Shown here piece after piece: positions 26,888 through 37,480 of a stretch of 64,000 nt of DNA; position 1 is the stretch's first letter; each line of letters starts with the position of its first letter. Source of the stretch: Moorena sp. SIOASIH (GTDB taxonomy: Bacteria > Cyanobacteriota > Cyanobacteriia > Cyanobacteriales > Coleofasciculaceae); contig NZ_JAAHIH010000001.1 in assembly GCF_010671925.1 (NCBI RefSeq), forward strand, positions 549,053-613,052. Reading direction: 5' to 3'. The notes under the pieces were generated by a model. It did not search any database. It was not told where the DNA came from and saw only the letters and a list, made by a program, of their open reading frames with translations. The position numbers were made by a program, and so were the translations under genes.

Positions 26888-27283
26888 ATGACGATCAGCA
26901 ACCAATCTGTTTTTACTGTAGCTGTATTGAGTGTAGCCCTTGGCATTACTACAGCGTTACTACACGGATCCGCTACTGCCCAAACTACAGGTACTATTCG
27001 AGCGGATGAAAATTTTAATAATCCTAACGAGCAAGACACGTTTGGGGGGTTTGGAGACAGTGGTTTCAACGCTTTTGATTTAATCCATAATGCCCAATTG
27101 GGTACAGTTGATATCGATCAGTTCATTGAGGGACAGTCTCAGAGACTAAACGATGCTGCTTCTGAGTTTCGGCGTTTACAGTTGGAACGGTTGCGCAATC
27201 CCCAAGTAGTATCTCCAGAAAACCAATATCCAGAAAACCAATATCCAGAAAACCAGCCTGCTACATCTGGGGTTAGCTTCTGA
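26888..27283 (+). CDS. Small secreted hypothetical protein with a C-terminal ENQYP repeat
   Basis: 131 aa with a signal-peptide-like N-terminus (VFTVAVLSVALGITTALLHGSATAQ). No recognised domain. Confidence 0.4.
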   Translation: MTISNQSVFTVAVLSVALGITTALLHGSATAQTTGTIRADENFNNPNEQDTFGGFGDSGFNAFDLIHNAQLGTVDIDQFIEGQSQRLNDAASEFRRLQLERLRNPQVVSPENQYPENQYPENQPATSGVSF

Positions 27284-27289
27284 CAAAAT

Positions 27290-27766
27290 TCATCCCACGC
27301 TCACGCTACGCTTTGAGACGTGGGATGAATTTTGTGCAGGGTCTTTGTTGCTCATCTCAGGAGTGTCTTGGTTTTCAATGTACTTTTTAAGAGTAGAAAT
27401 AGTAACGCCACCACAACTAGCAATAAAGTAAGAACTATTCCACAATACAGGTTTTTTGTAGTAGATTCTGGCTAGTTGTTCACCAAATTCTACTCTTATT
27501 TTTCGGCTTGAGACACTCTTCAATGAGTTAACCAGTTTACTCAGGTGAATGTCAGGGTGATACTGGAACAGCAGGTGAACATGGTCTTTTTCCCCATCAA
27601 GGCTAACAAGCGATCATTCTTGTTGTTCAAGTAAGTTTTCAAAAATTTCATGTAAACGGCTAATCATCTCACCAGTAAAGACTTTGCGACGATACTTGGT
27701 CGTCAAGACGAGATGAGCTTTAAGGTCAGAGACAGACCGACCCTTGGATAAAAAGTCATTCTTCAT
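27290..27766 (-). pseudogene. tnpA: IS200-family Y1 transposase TnpA with an in-frame TGA stop
   Basis: Minus-strand translation reads MKNDFLSKGRSVSDLKAHLVLTTKYRRKVF…EQQE-[TGA]-SLVSLDGEKDHVHLLFQYHPDIHLSKLVNSLKSVSSRKIR…SYFIASCGGVTISTLKKYIENQ. The HVHLL and Y motifs are present and the stop is in-frame. Confidence 0.75.
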
Positions 27767-27818: not shown

Positions 27819-29211
27819 ATGAAATACACGTATCAATATCGACTATATCCAGAGACTCAACAAACACTCACACTGAACGAGTGGCTGCGAGTTGGTCGAT
27901 ATTGGTATAACCGGATGTTGGGTGAGCGTTTTGATTGGTGGGAGAAAAATAGATGTCCGGTCAATGCCTGTCCATTAATCTGTTACCTTCCGGAGCTTAA
28001 AGATCAGCCCAATTTATACAGCCAGAAAAAGCAACTTCCAGTTATCAAGAAAGACTTGGTTAAGATTGGATGGTCTGGAGAGTTGATAGACTTTACTGAG
28101 GTTTATTCAACTGTTTTGCAAGATGTCTGTACAAGAGTAAAAAACGCTTTTAACAGGTTTATAGCAGGTGACAAAAATGGTAAACGCAGTGGCAAGCCTC
28201 GATTTAAGAATGTTGCCAGATATCGGACGTTAAACTTTCCAAATGCTTATAATTCTTGGTTAAAGTTCTGTACTGTTAACGGAAAATGGTTGTTTGTTCA
28301 AGTTCCTAAAATTGGTTTGATTAAGCTGAGAATACACAGACCGTTACCTGATAGTGCAAACTTAAAACAGCTATCAATTACAAGGAAAGCTGACGGATGG
28401 TACTGCAACCTGAGCCTAGAGGATAAGTCCGTGCCGGAGTTCAACCCTGATGACATTATTCCTACTTGGGAAAACTCAATTGGAATGGATGCTGTTCTAG
28501 ATAGAGGCTTTTATCTAGCAATATCCGATGGCAAGAAACTCCCCTCGCTTAAACCACTTCGTCGGAATCAAGACAAGTTAACCAAAGTTTCTCAACGGAA
28601 AAATAAGCGTAAAAAAGGAAGTAAAGCCAGACGTAAACTAGCAAAACGGGAAGCCCGTATTCATCAACAGATAGCTAGGAGTCGTGAAGATTTCCAGTAC
28701 AAAACTGCTCATCAACTGGTGAATACAGGTAAGAAAGTCTTCTTTCACGAGAAGCTGAACCTCAAGGGTTTAACTCGTCGCAATACTCCTAAACGAGGGC
28801 GAGATGGTACGTTCTTATCCAATGGTCAATCATCAAAATCAGGACTTAACAAGTCTTGGCTAGATGCAGCCTTTGGTCAGTTCTTTGAAGTGCTGGGTCA
28901 GGTAGCCGCAAAAGAAGGGCGCCAGTGTAGTCGAAGTCAAGCCAAATTACACATCTCAACTCCTCTCTTATCGAGATGAATTTGTGTTCACCGACCGAGA
29001 TATGCGAGAGTATTTCGATGAGGAACTAAAGCTGATTGTCGATAGAGATGTCAACGCATCAATCAACATAAAGCGAGTCGGGCTGGATGTGTTCCCGACT
29101 ATAAAACGCCGTAGAGGGAAGCCTGTAGTTGTTGAATCTACTACTAATAGTACCTCGCAGGAAGCTCTGACCGCTCTTTATGAGCATCAGAAGCCCACAC
29201 TGAAAGCGTAG
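27819..29211 (+). pseudogene. tnpB: TnpB (IS605 OrfB) disrupted by a frameshift near 28925. The RuvC-III segment continues in another frame and no zinc-finger cysteines are seen.
   Basis: ORF1 ends …VAAKEGRQCSRSQ… . The alternative frame reads …VVEVKPNYTSQ…FTDRDMREYF… and joins the 28984 ORF, which carries DRDVNASINIKRVG. Confidence 0.7.
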
Positions 29212-29392: not shown

Positions 29393-29737
29393 TCAAGCTA
29401 AGGAATCAGAGGAGATAGACCTTGAGGTAAACGTTTGGGGCATCGGGAAATTATCCCAGTGCAAGATATTATAGATTCCTGTATGAATCCAGTTTTCTAA
29501 ATACAGCTTCTGCTCTGAGGATAACTGCTGTAATTCTTGGCTTTTTGATGATGGTTCAATCTTGTCTATGGCTTCGTAATGATTCGGAATTCGGTTCAGG
29601 ACATAAGCAATTAAATCCTGGCGTATGTTAGACTGGGAAAACACTTCTTGATAAGGAAACTCCGGATAAGTTGCTAAGACGTTTTCAATTTCTTGAATCA
29701 CTATCGGTGTAGTTACGTGAACAAGGGTTTTAACCAT
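29393..29737 (-). CDS. ComFB-family protein (late-competence ComFB-like; cyclic-dinucleotide receptor family in cyanobacteria)
   Basis: 114 aa. The N-terminal pattern MVKTLVHVTTPIVIQEIENVL…DLIAYVLNRIPNHY matches the ComFB signature (…DI.A.ALN.LP..Y). Confidence 0.55.
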   Translation of the reverse strand: MVKTLVHVTTPIVIQEIENVLATYPEFPYQEVFSQSNIRQDLIAYVLNRIPNHYEAIDKIEPSSKSQELQQLSSEQKLYLENWIHTGIYNILHWDNFPMPQTFTSRSISSDSLA

Positions 29738-29836: not shown

Positions 29837-30177
29837 GTAAGCATTCAGCTATCAGCGTGTCCCGTATCAGCTATCAGCTAATGCGCTACGCGCACGCTAC
29901 TTGAGGTGCTATCAACCATTAGCCATTGGCCTGTGGCTACCGTACTTGAGGTGCTTATGGGCTATGGGCACGCTGTCTTGATGCAGTCGCTCATGGGGGA
30001 AACCACGGCAGTTGCTCATGGGGGGAACCCCCAAGACCGCACTGCCTCCCCAAGACCGTAATGGTGCGTTTTCCGTAGGCGAATTAAATTCGCCACGGGT
30101 CGCACCTCTGCATCGCTACTTGAGGTGCTTTTGAATAAAATAAGCTGACGGCTGACCGCTGATGGCTGAATGCTTAC
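29837..30177. mobile_element. MITE-like element, 341 bp, with perfect 13-bp TIRs and an 8-bp target-site duplication AGGGAAGT. It is inserted into the 3' end of a response-regulator gene.
   Basis: GTAAGCATTCAGC at 29837-29849 and GCTGAATGCTTAC at 30165-30177. AGGGAAGT occurs at 29829-29836 and 30178-30185. The interior carries the dispersed CATGAGCGACTGC / GCGGTCTTGGGG motifs. Confidence 0.8.
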
Positions 30178-30550
30178 AGGGAAGTATTCTTAACTGCTGA
30201 TTAATTGCTGCTAATAGTTCCCGACTCTCTACAGGTTTGGTTAGATAATCGTTGGCTCCCAGTTGCTTAGCTCGAGCATAGCCATCCTCCTTTGACTGAC
30301 TGCTTAGAAATATAAACGGTGTTTTCGCTGTAGTTATCCTATCCCGTAATATCTGGAGAAGCTCATACCCATCAATTGATGGTATATTAATTTCACAAAT
30401 AATTAAATCAGGTCGGACAACTTTAGCTAAAGTTAAACCGAGCCAACCGTCTTCTGCAGTAAGGACATTAAAGCCTTCTAATTCCAGTAAATCTGAGAAA
30501 TTTGAGCGCAACAGTTTATCATTTTCAATTAATAAAATTGTTTTGTTCAT
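30116..30550 (-). CDS. CheY-like single-domain response regulator. Its last 20 codons are read from the inserted MITE.
   Basis: MNKTILLIENDKLLR… with phospho-acceptor Asp context (DLIICEINIPSIDG) and the conserved KPV. The ORF track's upstream extension (MGINLDHEF…) is unlikely to be translated. Confidence 0.75.
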   Translation of the reverse strand: MNKTILLIENDKLLRSNFSDLLELEGFNVLTAEDGWLGLTLAKVVRPDLIICEINIPSIDGYELLQILRDRITTAKTPFIFLSSQSKEDGYARAKQLGANDYLTKPVESRELLAAINQQLRILPCKHSAISGQPSAYFIQKHLK

Positions 30551-30581
30551 CGCTCCAGCCTTTATAAATTCATGATCAAGA

Positions 30582-31205
30582 TTAATCCCCAACTTGCAGA
30601 ATCTGTTCTAGCAAGAGGCGATCGCTAGTTGAGCTACCGAACCATAATTTATCTTTTGCCAGAGTACTGACAGATAACCTACCATTTGGTTCAACGCTAA
30701 AATCTTGATCCAACACTAACCCTTGCTCCTGAAGCTTATTGATTGCGACAGTCATCGCTACTGCCACTAAGTCAAGTTCGGGCATCAAATAATCGGGATG
30801 ACCCAATAGCCAGTGACAAGCATCAAGGTTAGTCTCTGGTAGTCGATAAACTGCTGCGAGTAAGACTTGCTCAATATAAGTGGGACTGGGTAAAACAGTC
30901 AGAAAGTCTTTAAGAGATTTGATAAATGTTGAGTCTTGACTCTGAAAGACATCCACAGCTAATGCGATGTATGACTCATAGTCCTGGGCGTCGGTGGTAC
31001 CCATATCTCGTTCCTTGGTCAAGGGCAAACTCTTGATACCCAGGACAACTGGTGTGAACGTTTGTCTCCTCTGGTGCTCTGGGTGGTGAGGATAAGCTAA
31101 ATCGATCGTGGGACTGATCGTGGGACTCAGGGATAATTGATCCAAAGGAGTGGCGCTGGAACAATTACTGGAACTGCTACTCTTGTTTGAAAAAATGATA
31201 CCCAT
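30582..31205 (-). CDS. Hypothetical protein (Ser-rich N-terminus), co-oriented with the response regulators
   Basis: 207-aa ORF with no recognisable motif. It overlaps the downstream response-regulator ORF extension by 11 nt. Confidence 0.35.
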   Translation of the reverse strand: MGIIFSNKSSSSSNCSSATPLDQLSLSPTISPTIDLAYPHHPEHQRRQTFTPVVLGIKSLPLTKERDMGTTDAQDYESYIALAVDVFQSQDSTFIKSLKDFLTVLPSPTYIEQVLLAAVYRLPETNLDACHWLLGHPDYLMPELDLVAVAMTVAINKLQEQGLVLDQDFSVEPNGRLSVSTLAKDKLWFGSSTSDRLLLEQILQVGD

Positions 31206-31566: not shown

Positions 31567-31947
31567 TCAATCGAGCCAATTAAGAATCCCTTGGATTTCC
31601 TCGACCAATTCCATAGGTTTAAACGGCTTGGTAATAACTCCAGTTACCCCCAAATCTAGAAACTGCTTTTGCTCGCTGCTCCTAGCTTTAGCTGTTAGCA
31701 AAATTGTTGGGATGTCCGCCGTTACTGCATTAGCTTGTAACTGTCGAAAGGTAGCCGGTCCATCCAGCTCGGGCATCATTACATCTAGCAGAATAGCATC
31801 AGGCTGATCTGCCTCAGCCTTAGCTAATCCCTCCTTACCAGAAGCAGCTGTCAACACTTCCCACCCTGCTGCTGCTTCTAGAGAAAATTGGATGATTTCT
31901 CGAACCCCATCATCATCATCAATCACTAAAATGCGCTTAGTTGTCAT
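31567..31947 (-). CDS. CheY-like single-domain response regulator. Its start overlaps the stop of the upstream histidine kinase by 11 nt.
   Basis: MTTKRILVIDDDDGVREII… with DAILLDVMMPELDG and TAKA…KP. Confidence 0.8.
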   Translation of the reverse strand: MTTKRILVIDDDDGVREIIQFSLEAAAGWEVLTAASGKEGLAKAEADQPDAILLDVMMPELDGPATFRQLQANAVTADIPTILLTAKARSSEQKQFLDLGVTGVITKPFKPMELVEEIQGILNWLD

Positions 31948-34816
31948 GGTTCTCACCTTCTGCTGCTGCTGTTTCTTTCGGTAAGGTAAAATAAAAACTG
32001 CTGCCTTCACCAACAGTACTCTCAACCCAGATTTTGCCTCCGTGCTGCTCCACTATATTACGGCAAATCGCTAACCCTAAACCCGTCCCTCCCTTTTTAC
32101 GGGCATCGGAAGCATCAACCTGTTGAAAACGCCCGAATATACTTTCAAGTTTGTCAGCCGGAATTCCCCTACCTTGGTCTTTAACGGTAAATAAGATCAT
32201 GGCACTGTTTGGGTCAGGGGGTGAGGTGGTTTCTGGTTCCTCTGGCTGTTGCAGTTCCACTGTTAACCATAGGCTAGAACCTCTGTCTGAAAATTTAATC
32301 CCATTGCTGAGTAAATTGGTTATGACTTGAATAATGCGATCGCTATCAGCCTCGAATTCAATCTCAGATTCAATAGCTTGGGGCGAGACTTCCAATTTAA
32401 TCCCAGCTCGATTAGCCATCACCTGCACCTGATCAACAGCTTTAACCATCAACTCAGCTGCATTCACTGGCTGCTTAGACAAACGGATCTTACCAGATTC
32501 CAGACGTTCCAGCTCCAAAATATCGTTAACCAGTCGCACTAAACGCTCAGCACTGTCAGCGGCAATGCCAATTACACGCTGTCCTCGTTCAGACTGAGGT
32601 TGAATTAGACCAGTTGATAACAGGTTCAAGGCACCATGAATTGAGGTTAGGGGGGTACGGAGTTCGTGGCTGACCACGGAGGTGAATTCATCTTTCATCC
32701 GTTCAATAGCGTAGCGCTCGGTAATATCTTCCCCAATACTCATGGTGCCAATTGCCTCTCCCTGGACATTTTGGAGTAGAGTATTATTCCAAGCAATGAT
32801 TTTTTCTTGCTTTGACTTGGTGAGAATCGAGTGCTGATAGTGGGGTTGAAAGTCTGGATCTAGGATGTCCTGGAAGTATTGCTGTACTGACTTTTGCTGG
32901 GAATTGGGCAGGAAGTTTTCAAACCAGTCCTTGCCTAAAACTTCTGCTTCTGTGTACTTAGTCAATTCTAGGAAGAAGGGATTGACATACTCCACTTTAC
33001 CCTGTCGGTCTAGTCCCACCACCACCAGTCGCACATGTTCGAGAAGGCTGCGCCACCGTCGCTCTGATTCCTGTAAGCTAGCAATTAACTGGGTACGTTC
33101 TTGTTCAAATCGTTTACGTGAAGTAATATCTCGCTGCAACACTAAGATATAGCTAATGTTTCCTTGAGTATCATGAACCACTGAACAAGAGTAGTCTGTG
33201 GTAAGAATTGTCCCATTTTTGCAGACAAACTCAATTTCTTGACGATAGGTTCCCTGCTCCAGTAAAACTGGAAACTGTTGCTGGCAAATGTTTTGGTATG
33301 TGGGGGTAAAGAACTCTTCTAAGCGATTACCGATCAATTCTGATTCAGCATAACCTGACTGGTGGATGACAGCCGGGTTCACTTGCTCAATCATGCCCTG
33401 AGTATCTAATATATGGATAAAATCTGGGGCAGATTCAAACAACGAACGGAATCGTTGTTCGCTTTCGAGTAAAGCAGCTGTGCGCTGTTGAACCCTAATT
33501 TCTAATTCTCGATTGAGTTGTTGTAATTCTCGATTGAGTTGTTGCAGTTGAGCTTCTTGCTGTTTACGCTCCGTGATATCCGTAGTGATGCCGTGAAGAT
33601 GTACAGAGGTGCCATTATCACGCCTAACCACACGAGCGCGATCGTTCAGCCAGCGAATTTCTCCATTACTGAGCTGAATTCTATATTCTAAATCCCACGA
33701 TTCACGACGATTTTCTTGAACAGCTCGCCATGCTTTCTCAACATGCTCAAAATCTTCTGGGACAATAAACTGTCGCCATAGGTTGTCTTGATCGCTGAAT
33801 AGCTCGAAAGTTGGGCGACCGTAAACTTGCTCGAAGGCTAAATTAACATAGCGCAGTATCCCAGAAGGCAGTGATACTGACCACACCACGTCTTGAAGAG
33901 AACTCATAATTGCTCGGAGCCGCTCTTCGTTGGACTTAAGTGCCTTTTCATTTTCTTGAAATGCTTCTTCTGTCTGCTTGCGTACGCTAATATCCGTAAT
34001 TGAGCCAACCACCCGCACTGCATCACCTGCTTCATTCCAAAGTGCTTGTCCCTGGTCAAGAATCCATTTGTAGCTGCCGTCGTTGCACTGTAAGCGATAC
34101 TCTTGAACGTAATAGGGGGTTTTCTGAGCCAAGTGATCCTTCATGGCTTTTATCACCTGGTCTACATCATCGCGATGAATGTGTGTCCGCCATTGATGGT
34201 TATAGTTTCCGATGTCGTAGTTTTCATCATACCCCAGCATTTCCTTACATCGGCTGGAGAAAAAGGTTTCATTGGTTTTGGGGTTCCAGTCCCAAATTCC
34301 CTGATTAGCTCCCTGTAGTGCCAATTGCCAGCGTTGCTCACGTTTTCGTAAGGATTGCTCTGCCAAAATACGCTCTTCAATTTGAGATTTTAGCTCCTGG
34401 TTGAGCTGCTCAAGCCTAGCCAGACTGGGAAAAGCGAGGACTCGAGGTAGAACAGAGAATAAATTTATGGCAGTGTAGACAGAAACTATAGCTGTAATTG
34501 CTTTAATAGAGCCTGATAGCCAGTAAGCTGGATACCAAAGCGTCCATAGTTCCATCAGGTGAGTGGTGCCAGAGGCAATAATCAACGCCCCAAACAAAAT
34601 CAAGAGTCCCTTGAAAGGCAGATCCTGCCGCTGCCTAATCAAGTACACTAGCAGTATGGGAATCACATAGTAGGCTAGGGTAATTAGGGAATCACTGATC
34701 AGGTGCAGCCAGATCAAGTTAGGCTGCTGGAGGTAGCAGTTGCCTTGGAGAATAAACGTTTCGGCAAATAGGAGATAGTCAAAGAAATTGATCATAATTA
34801 GGTTGACAATTGACAT
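31937..34816 (-). CDS. Hybrid-type sensor histidine kinase: N-terminal ethylene-receptor (ETR1)-like three-helix membrane domain, multiple PAS/PAC domains, HisKA and HATPase_c
   Basis: The N-terminus …ISDSLITLAYYVIPILLVYLIRQ…FGALIIASGTTHLMELWTL…AITAIVSVYTAINLFSVLP aligns with the ETR1 ethylene-binding domain. The H-box is EFTSVVSHELRTPLTSI, followed by a G-box region. Confidence 0.75.
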   Translation of the reverse strand: MSIVNLIMINFFDYLLFAETFILQGNCYLQQPNLIWLHLISDSLITLAYYVIPILLVYLIRQRQDLPFKGLLILFGALIIASGTTHLMELWTLWYPAYWLSGSIKAITAIVSVYTAINLFSVLPRVLAFPSLARLEQLNQELKSQIEERILAEQSLRKREQRWQLALQGANQGIWDWNPKTNETFFSSRCKEMLGYDENYDIGNYNHQWRTHIHRDDVDQVIKAMKDHLAQKTPYYVQEYRLQCNDGSYKWILDQGQALWNEAGDAVRVVGSITDISVRKQTEEAFQENEKALKSNEERLRAIMSSLQDVVWSVSLPSGILRYVNLAFEQVYGRPTFELFSDQDNLWRQFIVPEDFEHVEKAWRAVQENRRESWDLEYRIQLSNGEIRWLNDRARVVRRDNGTSVHLHGITTDITERKQQEAQLQQLNRELQQLNRELEIRVQQRTAALLESEQRFRSLFESAPDFIHILDTQGMIEQVNPAVIHQSGYAESELIGNRLEEFFTPTYQNICQQQFPVLLEQGTYRQEIEFVCKNGTILTTDYSCSVVHDTQGNISYILVLQRDITSRKRFEQERTQLIASLQESERRWRSLLEHVRLVVVGLDRQGKVEYVNPFFLELTKYTEAEVLGKDWFENFLPNSQQKSVQQYFQDILDPDFQPHYQHSILTKSKQEKIIAWNNTLLQNVQGEAIGTMSIGEDITERYAIERMKDEFTSVVSHELRTPLTSIHGALNLLSTGLIQPQSERGQRVIGIAADSAERLVRLVNDILELERLESGKIRLSKQPVNAAELMVKAVDQVQVMANRAGIKLEVSPQAIESEIEFEADSDRIIQVITNLLSNGIKFSDRGSSLWLTVELQQPEEPETTSPPDPNSAMILFTVKDQGRGIPADKLESIFGRFQQVDASDARKKGGTGLGLAICRNIVEQHGGKIWVESTVGEGSSFYFTLPKETAAAEGENHDN

Positions 34817-35423
34817 GATTGCTGACAGTCAACCGTTAACCATCAACTGTGAATAAAATGTGATCAACTCTACTATGTCCGATCTCTAAATTCTATGTCC
34901 AGTGGCATACTCCTACACTGACTCTGCTCTTACAGAGCCGCTCCGGGAACGAGTGAGCGTGTAGGCTTGAAGCCAACTCCACCCAACGGTATCGGCTTTC
35001 GCCGACGCTGCGCGAACGGATACGTAGGCTTGCTTTATTAACGACACGGTCAGAAGTTACCCCAGCGAGCAATCCCTCGCTGGGGCAGCCTTTATGGTTA
35101 GTCGGTTATGCGTAAAGAGTTAAAACTTTATGATTAAGGCCAGAGACGAATTCTTAGGATAGGGTCGCCTTTATAGTTTGTAGGTCATGCAAAATAGGGT
35201 TAAGTCTCTTGTAATAAGGCGACCCTATCCTTACGGAGACTTCAAACCCTATTCTAAGGTTTCGTCTCCGGGATGCCCCGACCCGCCGGAACAATACAAA
35301 AATTCGATTTTTTCCCTAGTAAATAGCTGACAAACCAGCATTTAAGGCCGTAGGCCACGCGGGGCGCGTTCGGCTTTGTTTATCAGTAGATATATTATAG
35401 CAATTCCATACATACTCTGTGCA

Positions 35424-35472
35424 AAATCCATCCCACACCTAATGCGCAGCATAGGTGTGGGATGAATTTTGC
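35424..35472. mobile_element. Orphan IS200/IS605-end-like palindrome (CAAAATCCATCCCACACCT…AGGTGTGGGATGAATTTTG)
   Basis: Its arms share CAAAAT[TC]CATCCCAC…GTGGGATGAATTTTG with the IS end at 27286-27335. No transposase is adjacent. Confidence 0.5.
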
Positions 35473-35497
35473 CGGACAGCTAACTGACCAGAGTTAT

Positions 35498-37480
35498 TTA
35501 TTTATCTGACAACATTTGATTCTTCTGTGCTATCGTTCTTATCCTTAGTTTACTGCGCTCAATGCGATTCAACACCCGAGCTAATAGCTCCGGTGCCCTG
35601 ATTGGTTTTTGTACGTAATCATCTGCCCCTGCCATAAACACTTGCTGCACAGTTTCAGCATCTTGAACAGCTGATAGAAACAGCACGGGTAACTCACCCC
35701 AGCGAGGGTCATTGCGTACCACCTGGCACAGGTCAATACCGCTAAACTCCGGCATTTCCACATCCAAAATCAGTAAATCTGGACTACACTGCTCTATGGT
35801 TTCCCAGAACTGTTGTGGATCGTTTAGCAAAGTCAATTCAAATCCCCAAGGTTCTAGCACAGTGCGTAGCTGATCCAGGATTTGAGGGTCATCGTCAACA
35901 ATCAATAGCTTTGCCTGTGGTGGACCGGATTGTTGCAACGCTTTAGCGATCGCAGCCATGACCTTTTGAGGTGCTACAGGCTTCTGAAGAAAACCCCTTC
36001 CTCCCAAACGAGCCACTCTGACTCGTTCAGCAAAACTCTCTTGAGCCGTAAATACTACCACAGGTACAGGGGGCTCAGTTGTTTTCAGTTCTTCTAACAG
36101 CTCGAAACCATTTCCCGCTGATTCAGGAAAACACAAGTCTAGTAGTACCACATCGGGGCGGTTACCAGCAATTGCTTTTCTCCCTTGAGATATATCACCC
36201 GCCACCTCAACCTGAATTTTCCAGGCTGCTAGCTCTGATGCCAACCCTTGCGCTAGTGTTAAATCATCATCCACAATCAGTAGTCGTGGGGAGTGGGGAA
36301 TCGGGAATCGGGAGTAGGAAGTGGGTAGTGGTTGACTTTGAGTAGGTTTTGGAAGGTTATCCTCGGTCTCTAGTTCTTGTCGTAGTTCTACCACTAGTTG
36401 AGACAGATGTGCTATAGTCTCTTTGCTAGCTTTTTTCCCAGATTGCAATATCTCCTCAATTTCACGGGATTTGAGAGAGGCTTGATCAAATCCAAAGCTA
36501 CCGAGGGAACCGGCTAGGGTGTGTGCCTCCCGTAAAGCCTCCTGTCGCAACTTTCCGGTAAGATTACCATCTCGCCAATCCGTCACCGCCTGCTCCAATA
36601 CATTGACCCGCTTGATATACTTTGACTTCTGCTGCTGCCAAATGGCACTTAATCCTGATTGCTTTGGTTCTTCGGATTGAGCATTAGGGACTGGGGAAAG
36701 GGAACTATCACTCTTGACCTTTGAGTGTTTCAGGTTAGATGGGGTCTTTTTCCCGGCTTTTTTGCCTTTGTTTTTCTCAGTCTTTGTTTGACCTGAACCT
36801 TTCTCAGGCGGTTGTCTGAGCCGATAACCCAAGCCATAGACGGTTTCAATTAAATCATTTTTGGCTCCAGCTTCCTTGAGTTTCCGCCGTAAACTTTTGA
36901 TATGAGCTCTAACGGCATTTTCTGTAGGGGGTTCTTCAAAAGACCAGAGATTATCTAGCAGGAAACTTTGGCTAAAGATGCGGTGGGGATTCCGTAAAAA
37001 CAGCTCTACTAGACCATACTCCTTAGGTGTCAGATGTAATAGTTCCTGATCGTAGCTGACCTGGCAGTTACTGGGGTCAAGGTGCAGTAATCCCCACTCA
37101 AGCACCGGGAGTAGGGGGGTGCTGCTGCGGCGCAGCACTGCTCGAATTCTGGCTAATAATTCAGGTATGTCTAAGGGCTTGACTAAATAATCATCCGCTC
37201 CTGCGTCTAAAGCTTCGACTTTGTTAGTGCTGGTGTCTTGGGCAGTGAGCAGTATAATCGGAGTGCGATCGCGTGCGTTTCGCAGCTGCTTGCACAAATC
37301 AATCCCCGTGAGCCTGGGGAGCATCCAATCTAGCAAAATCAAGTCATACTTAAATATCTCTGCTAGTGCTATCCCCTCATCCCCATCTGTAGCTAGATCA
37401 ACCTGATAATGTTGACTAGCTAGCGCTGCCGTTACCACTTTGGCAATACCTTCATCGTCTTCTACTAGCAGGATTCTCAC
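35498..37480 (-). CDS. Multi-domain response regulator: REC, OmpR-type winged helix, HPt-like domain, REC, REC
   Basis: REC1 is MRILLVEDDEGI…DLILLDWMLP. The wHTH is …LTPKEYGLVELFLRNP…VYGLGYRL. HPt-like is EALREAHTLAGSLGSFGF. REC2 is LLIVDDDLTLAQ. REC3 is KLLIVDDDPQIL…LILDVEMP. Confidence 0.75.
   Translation of the reverse strand: MRILLVEDDEGIAKVVTAALASQHYQVDLATDGDEGIALAEIFKYDLILLDWMLPRLTGIDLCKQLRNARDRTPIILLTAQDTSTNKVEALDAGADDYLVKPLDIPELLARIRAVLRRSSTPLLPVLEWGLLHLDPSNCQVSYDQELLHLTPKEYGLVELFLRNPHRIFSQSFLLDNLWSFEEPPTENAVRAHIKSLRRKLKEAGAKNDLIETVYGLGYRLRQPPEKGSGQTKTEKNKGKKAGKKTPSNLKHSKVKSDSSLSPVPNAQSEEPKQSGLSAIWQQQKSKYIKRVNVLEQAVTDWRDGNLTGKLRQEALREAHTLAGSLGSFGFDQASLKSREIEEILQSGKKASKETIAHLSQLVVELRQELETEDNLPKPTQSQPLPTSYSRFPIPHSPRLLIVDDDLTLAQGLASELAAWKIQVEVAGDISQGRKAIAGNRPDVVLLDLCFPESAGNGFELLEELKTTEPPVPVVVFTAQESFAERVRVARLGGRGFLQKPVAPQKVMAAIAKALQQSGPPQAKLLIVDDDPQILDQLRTVLEPWGFELTLLNDPQQFWETIEQCSPDLLILDVEMPEFSGIDLCQVVRNDPRWGELPVLFLSAVQDAETVQQVFMAGADDYVQKPIRAPELLARVLNRIERSKLRIRTIAQKNQMLSDK

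Follow-up and report, generated by a model that had tools for sequence, protein, structure and literature searches.

In the ethylene receptor ETR1 of Arabidopsis, Cu(I) is proposed to be held by Cys65 and His69, and the C65Y substitution of the etr1-1 allele abolishes both copper and ethylene binding (PMC10266040). Asp25 and Lys91 support the copper site, form a polar bridge and serve as signal-relay residues in the ETR1 model (PMC10266040). A comparison of 1,221 sequences found Cys65 and His69 to be highly conserved and gave no variant at Cys65 (PMC10266040), and natural Asp25Asn variants, mostly cyanobacterial, have their affinity cut ~100-fold (Azhar et al. 2023, PMC10266040). In laboratory mutants, ethylene binding is eliminated by mutating Cys65 or Asp25 in Arabidopsis ETR1 (AtETR1) and the equivalent Cys in the Synechocystis receptor SynEtr1, a C75A mutant of AzoEtr1 was made as a predicted non-binding control, and an ETR1 C65S;H69A double mutant shows residual copper binding that depends on Asp25. 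Tyr32, Ile35, Pro36 and Ile62 are reportedly also required for ethylene binding in ETR1, a result said to come from Wang and co-workers in 2006. No report of a natural ETR1_N domain without Cys65 was found in the accessible literature, where site variation is reported only for Asp25, and no paper there links Moorea/Moorena to ethylene receptors. The window analysed here, a 64,000-nucleotide stretch of contig NZ_JAAHIH010000001.1 from the cyanobacterium Moorena sp. SIOASIH, holds a sensor histidine kinase gene (31937-34816, minus strand, identified from the list of open reading frames and its translation) whose 959-residue product is headed by an ethylene-receptor-type membrane domain with Ser in place of Cys65.

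Set against the described systems, this kinase belongs to a known sensor family, of which it is a rare natural variant, and is no new kind of system. It shares with Arabidopsis ETR1 and ERS1 the PF25487 family, the three membrane helices, the equivalents of Asp25, Tyr32, Ile35, Pro36, Ile62, His69 and Lys91, and the histidine kinase that follows, but it has Ser for Cys65, is ~29% identical over the domain, and has an output of four PAS domains instead of GAF, with no fused receiver. The laboratory alleles etr1-1 (C65Y), C65S and C65A, the SynEtr1 Cys mutants and AzoEtr1 C75A remove the same residue, whereas the Moorena change is natural, is fixed in the genus and comes together with other substitutions at conserved positions. 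SynEtr1 (Slr1212/UirS) of Synechocystis and GeiEtr1/2 of Geitlerinema are likewise cyanobacterial kinases headed by an ethylene-binding domain, with a single Cys before helix 1 and operonic response regulators. Unlike the Moorena kinase, they keep all seven binding residues; SynEtr1 binds ethylene, and it also differs in its photosensory module and in its partners Slr1213/Slr1214. The natural Asp25Asn variants (PMC10266040) are a parallel case of copper-site variation, and one Moorena orthologue (locus L007) even shares Asp25Asn, but those variants are working receptors with lowered affinity, and loss of the thiolate is expected to be far more severe.

The kinase product is 100% identical to Moorena sp. 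SIOASIH NEO35249.1 / WP_293090971.1, and the N-terminus of the translated reading frame runs ...LILFGALIIASGTTHLMELW.... From N- to C-terminus, Pfam recognises ETR1_N, then four PAS domains, then HisKA and HATPase_c. The membrane domain (residues 34-128; 34433-34717, minus strand) matches PF25487, "Ethylene receptor 1-like, N-terminal domain", at 127.4 bits against a cut-off of 27 (E 2.6e-37), over profile positions 2-96 of 97. AlphaFold2 (residues 1-136, mean predicted local distance difference test score 78.9) predicts helices at 32-62, 69-94 and 98-128, and the hydropathy peaks coincide with these three predicted membrane helices; no solved structure resembling the ethylene-binding domain was found by sequence or fold comparison. 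The four cytoplasmic PAS domains lie at residues ~170-700 (32717-34309, minus strand; Pfam PAS families, and TIGR00229 in four stretches), and a search of them for the LOV-type flavin motif (NCRF) found none. The kinase core, HisKA (707-775, 66.5 bits) and HATPase_c (824-948, 108 bits), occupies 31973-32698 on the minus strand, has histidine kinases as its nearest solved chains, and retains intact boxes: His717 in SHELRTP, NLLSNGIKF at 834, DQGRGI at 880 and GGTGLGL at 909. An earlier note on this DNA, made from the sequence alone, had recognised the ethylene-receptor-type membrane domain and the PAS/HisKA/HATPase kinase behind it in a two-component block. Both hold, with the PAS domains numbering four and the block containing two CheY-like receivers and a REC-wHTH-Hpt-REC-REC protein. 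At the extreme N-terminus AlphaFold2 also predicts an extra hydrophobic helix at residues 3-17 (residues 1-17 are encoded at 34772-34816, minus strand) and then a short helix at 24-30. The alternative NCBI-annotated start, Met8, gives a product of 952 residues and would halve the predicted helix 3-17.

What has become of the ligand site? In a MAFFT alignment with Arabidopsis ETR1 the position of the Cu(I) thiolate ligand Cys65 falls on Ser82 (codon TCT, 34571-34573, minus strand), that of His69 on His86 (CAC, 34559-34561, minus strand) and that of Asp25 on Asp42 (34691-34693, minus strand), so that the replacement of Cys65 by Ser beside a retained His, as given in the earlier note, is correct. 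Tyr32, Ile35, Pro36, Ile62 and Lys91 are likewise kept, as Tyr49, Ile52, Pro53, Ile79 and Lys105. The Cys-x3-His motif of helix 2 is thus broken in the window protein by Ser in place of Cys. A different, conserved Cys at the ligand position would have refuted the earlier note's reading, but helices 1-3 contain no other Cys; the sole Cys of the first 160 residues is Cys27, before helix 1, and therefore no alternative Cys can be placed at the ligand position. Ser82, His86 and Asp42 were also considered as a Ser-His-Asp triad-like catalytic site, a reading that was dropped because the Ser is not conserved among the Moorena orthologues.

The state of the site was followed in 17 distinct orthologues from Moorena, in the DNA of seven orthologous loci and in the 212 closest non-Moorena ETR1_N domains (the canonical set); the family as a whole, clustered at 50% identity and taken to E 0.001, counts 7,998 representatives. 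The window domain scores 189 bits against a hidden Markov model built from the 212 canonical domains. Cys stands at the ETR1 Cys65 position in 211 of these 212 (99.5%), and His at the His69 position also in 211, as against no Cys at the canonical position in any of the 17 Moorena orthologues, whose two residues at positions 64 and 65 are Ala-Ser, Thr-Ser or Cys-Gly. Across ETR1 positions 64-65-66, the window and Moorena sp. SIO3G5 have Ala-Ser-Gly (GCC TCT GGC); a syntenic metagenome orthologue (L007/L008) has Thr-Ser-Gly (ACC TCT GGC); all other Moorena (M. producens JHB, 3L and PAL, M. bouillonii and many metagenome-assembled genomes, MAGs) have Cys-Gly-Gly (TGC GGT GGC); and a canonical outgroup (L006) has Ala-Cys-Gly (GCT TGT GGC). 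In the Cys-Gly form the Cys thus stands one residue early, five residues from the His instead of four, with no compensating insertion or deletion. Loss of the Cys-x3-His motif is genus-wide in the Moorena examined, and beside the near-universal Cys of the canonical set it is no ordinary chance variant. In a search for a canonical paralogue elsewhere in the Moorena genome, one genome scan returned close orthologues only, a short-query protein search returned 19 short proteins, none named Moorena, and a full-length protein search covered the best 120 hits; no second ETR1_N domain occurs within the window or the fetched loci.

Only one member of the canonical set (P0294) lacks the Cys, with Ala-Gly-Gly at these positions. 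Its loss is an event independent of that in Moorena, because the protein is only 27% identical overall and its gene has other neighbours, one of them encoding an MHYT-domain protein. The P0294 kinase, present in three assemblies (L013 6001-8946), has Gln at the pre-helix-1 His and Gly at the conserved Trp99, and the MHYT-domain membrane protein lies upstream of it (L013 4316-5230). The MHYT family has been proposed as a copper-dependent gas sensor.

The changes in Moorena extend beyond the ligand. Just ahead of helix 1, canonical domains carry a P-H-G-x-C-Y-L-W motif whose residues are each at least 97% conserved (P in 206, H in 206, C in 209 and W in 208 of 212), and the Cys at this place in bacterial ethylene-binding domains has been proposed to form a dimer disulfide. 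The window protein reads L-Q-G-N-C-Y-L-Q here (34727-34750, minus strand), with Pro23Leu, His24Gln and Trp30Gln but with Gly, Cys27, Tyr and Leu kept. Gln24 replaces His in 17 of 17 Moorena orthologues, the Trp30 position varies (Q, G, R or W), and some have one-residue deletions within the motif. Outside Moorena, Gln at this His is confined to three sequences, the Cys-less P0294 among them. The Cys has thus been lost twice independently, each time in a domain with Gln24, which is suggestive of a functional link between this motif and the copper site, an argument that rests on two events. Altogether, 11 of the 36 positions conserved at 95% or more in canonical domains are altered in at least one Moorena orthologue, among them Asp25Asn (L007) and His69Gln (one MAG, SIO3H5); at Pro36, 94% conserved in canonical domains, some orthologues have Val or Ala. 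Five of the ≥95% positions are altered in the window protein itself: Pro23Leu, His24Gln, Trp30Gln, Phe78Leu (ETR1 Phe61) and Cys82Ser. The Thr-Ser orthologue with Asp25Asn (L007 8001-10388) is also missing one PAS domain, through a 163-residue deletion at alignment columns 423-586.

Gene order bears on how this kinase relates to the Cys-bearing ones. A module in which a REC-wHTH-Hpt-REC-REC-GGDEF regulator is followed by an ETR1_N-PAS(GAF)-kinase and a CheY-like receiver occurs with Cys-bearing kinases (P0054, P0024 of Leptothoe kymatousa, and P0037) at three loci (L009, L011, L012). In all three, 20-30 bp separate the regulator from the kinase, and a 124-residue receiver comes next. The Moorena module has the same gene order and orientation, and its regulator (660 residues, 35498-37480, minus strand, Pfam) is 41% identical to, and colinear with, the 794-residue Leptothoe protein of L011, ending where the GGDEF domain starts (the compared regulators lie at L011 4595-6979 and L009 4277-6973). 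The kinases of these modules are 48-54% identical to the Moorena kinase at partial query coverage (56-72%), and unlike it they keep Cys65 and the His of the PHG motif. The shared regulator-kinase-CheY module and the colinear regulator thus make the Moorena kinase a syntenic orthologue of Cys-bearing kinases and not a side paralogue. The earlier note had offered "ethylene-blind paralogue" as one of two readings; the second word has to be given up, while the first remains the best-supported reading, as something deduced from the published AtETR1 and SynEtr1 Cys mutants and from the way other residues of the binding site have decayed in the Moorena clade. The Moorena lineage has also lost the diguanylate cyclase (GGDEF) output of the module, and tblastn of the 681-bp intergenic stretch ahead of the kinase gave no signal of a GGDEF remnant. 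Since the partner regulator lost GGDEF in the same lineage, the whole module has been remodelled. Genus-wide loss of the motif, the shifted Cys of most Moorena, loss of the pre-helix-1 His and loss of the partner's GGDEF domain all go beyond what had been claimed for this DNA.

Rates of substitution set the membrane domain apart from the rest of the protein. Nonsynonymous (dN) and synonymous (dS) rates were calculated pairwise by the Nei-Gojobori method between the window and the other Moorena orthologues. Residues 34-128 gave dN 0.09-0.11, dS 0.08-0.15 and dN/dS 0.7-1.4, as against dN 0.018-0.027, dS 0.08-0.13 and dN/dS ~0.2 for the rest of the protein (~0.2-0.3 in the PAS region, 0.13-0.19 in the kinase core); among the Cys-Gly orthologues, dN/dS of residues 34-128 is 0.25-0.4. 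The nonsynonymous excess in residues 34-128 is significant (Fisher p = 0.009-0.02 per pair) on small counts, ~20 nonsynonymous and 5-9 synonymous differences. Recombination from a divergent donor was considered as the source of the fast N-terminus and rejected: dS between the window and the orthologue at L001 is 0.079 in the membrane domain and 0.081 in the rest of the gene, and because dS is equal and the excess purely nonsynonymous, import of a diverged allele fails as an explanation. The changes cluster in helix 2 around the ligand site and at the end of helix 3, and residues 98-117 of helix 3 are invariant in the Moorena clade. By nucleotide distance the N-terminal 135 codons of the window gene are closest to L007 and the rest of the gene to M. 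bouillonii, so the membrane domain had its own history; these split nearest neighbours hint that, within the genus, alleles were exchanged or changed in parallel. Purifying selection acts on the PAS and kinase parts, and together with the intact catalytic boxes this indicates that the kinase gene is in use.

Together, these observations favour, with a probability of about 0.6, a reading in which the copper/ethylene site has decayed in Moorena and the domain remains as a membrane anchor and dimer module in the ligand-free state, heading a PAS-governed kinase that signals to the adjacent receivers. On this reading the protein is a working, membrane-anchored histidine kinase whose N-terminal domain descends from the copper-dependent ethylene-binding domain and has lost the canonical Cys-x3-His site. 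With the thiolate ligand absent, the domain would be unable to hold Cu(I) tightly and so would not bind ethylene; by analogy with the published mutants, loss of copper and ethylene binding by the window domain is most likely. The three-helix domain, with its pre-helix-1 Cys kept, would still serve to anchor the protein in the membrane and to dimerise it, while staying in the ligand-free state at all times. Signal input would probably be left to the four cytoplasmic PAS domains, which would set kinase activity. The phosphoryl group would pass to the translationally coupled CheY-like receiver, with the adjacent REC-wHTH-Hpt-REC-REC protein as a probable further acceptor.

Several points weigh against this decay. 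His86, Asp42 and Lys105 are all kept in the window protein, and weak metal binding by the domain is possible because the ETR1 C65S;H69A protein keeps its Asp25-dependent residual copper binding. In principle the shifted Cys of the Cys-Gly orthologues could rebuild a thiolate site, an argument that does not apply to the window protein. The invariance of helix 3 at 98-117 and the dN/dS of the Cys-Gly orthologues argue that the domain is still constrained. Finally, dN/dS near 1 and three to four nucleotide changes in two adjacent codons would fit diversifying selection equally well, although the counts are small.

Could the pocket have been retuned instead of lost? Under diversifying selection it might have come to serve a different metal or small ligand while still gating the kinase, using His86, Asp42 and Ser82 (Cys81 in other Moorena), perhaps with Met88 or Cys27. 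A membrane-domain dN/dS of ~1 or above between the window and M. bouillonii and SIO3I8, with dS unchanged, speaks for this, as do three states of the ligand site (Ala-Ser, Thr-Ser and Cys-Gly, three to four changes in six bases) among genomes that differ by 2-5% elsewhere in the gene. The separate nearest neighbours of the N-terminal segment, the retention for the most part of helix 3, Asp42, His86 and Lys105, the signal-relay residues in the ETR1 model, and the residual copper binding of the double mutant point the same way. However, no site residue is common to the clade, which has Ser, Gly or a shifted Cys, a diversity that speaks against a single, defined new ligand. Some Moorena members have lost His69, some Asp25 and some Pro36, as decay predicts, and the sample is too small for a formal positive-selection test. 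Retuning is unlikely; the suggestion of a different ligand made in the earlier note is neither supported nor excluded. Less likely again is the fuller version of this idea, in which the pocket was re-engineered within one genus, with Ala-Ser, Thr-Ser and Cys-Gly alleles kept or exchanged under diversifying selection towards a new metal or ligand specificity. Were it true, Moorena would offer a natural experiment in rebuilding a copper-ethylene site, including a thiolate shifted by one helical position.

Lower in standing is the idea that the window domain still binds Cu(I) and ethylene at reduced affinity through ligands other than Cys65, in the manner of the Asp25Asn variants. Of the seven residues that ETR1 needs in order to bind ethylene, the window domain has six, plus Lys91; natural variants that lower affinity exist in cyanobacteria, and some copper is held by ETR1 without Cys65 and His69. 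Yet mutation of the Cys eliminates ethylene binding in both AtETR1 and SynEtr1, and AzoEtr1 C75A was designed as a predicted non-binder. Ser oxygen is a poor Cu(I) ligand in general coordination chemistry, and the Cys is conserved in 99.5% of the canonical set. Weak binding looks improbable. Although TCT is one nucleotide from the Cys codon TGT and the source genome is a MAG, the reading of Ser82 as a sequencing or assembly artefact or as the private deleterious mutation of one strain is refuted by the orthologues, because a second MAG (SIO3G5) has the same Ala-Ser, an independent metagenome has Thr-Ser with the same TCT codon in two assemblies (L007/L008), and all other Moorena, complete genomes among them, have Gly at the site.

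With Cys65 naturally lost throughout a genus in a syntenic orthologue, these proteins resembling etr1-1 provide ready material for tests of the role of the three-helix domain without copper. They also call for caution, in that a Pfam ETR1_N match alone should not count as an ethylene receptor in microbial surveys. The joint loss of His24 and Cys65, in Moorena and independently in P0294, hints that an uncharacterised bacterial motif works with the copper site. The finding further points to a widespread, unstudied cyanobacterial module linking an ethylene-binding-type kinase to a GGDEF regulator; no experimental study of the regulator-kinase-CheY ETR1_N module was found in the accessible literature.

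The kinase belongs to a block of genes with a common orientation, and the Moorena loci examined show full synteny across it. The block starts with a peroxiredoxin and continues with the REC-wHTH-Hpt-REC-REC regulator, the kinase, a CheY-like receiver, a 207-residue protein, a second receiver and a ComFB-domain protein. The first CheY-like receiver, the third gene of the module (126 residues, 31567-31947, minus strand, Pfam Response_reg), overlaps the kinase stop by 11 nt at its start, and a CheY-like receiver gene also comes after the kinase in L007, L009, L011 and L012. The conserved 207-residue protein (an open reading frame at 30582-31205, minus strand), syntenic in the same Moorena loci and lying between the two CheY-like genes, has no Pfam or NCBIfam match. 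The second CheY-like receiver (30116-30592, minus strand, Pfam) is equally syntenic, and the ComFB-domain protein that ends the block (114 residues, 29393-29737, minus strand, PF10719 at 30.9 bits) has a syntenic gene in L007 and L008.

Two local features accompany the block. An IS605 OrfB/TnpB-type transposase reading frame (386 residues, 27819-28979, plus strand) lies between the ComFB gene and a TPR-CHAT gene, and the syntenic L007 locus has no such gene at the corresponding place. The kinase start lies 681 bp from the end of the regulator gene because of a strain-specific insertion of ~578 bp, at about 34901-35479; the corresponding gap measures 103 bp in M. bouillonii, and in L007 it is 131 bp. 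An Rfam search of the insertion returned nothing meaningful. The insertion holds a hairpin with 21-nt arms (35421-35472) and a 16-nt inverted repeat (35156-35231), and its hairpin region is ~78-80% similar to 27272-27342, upstream of the IS605 OrfB gene.

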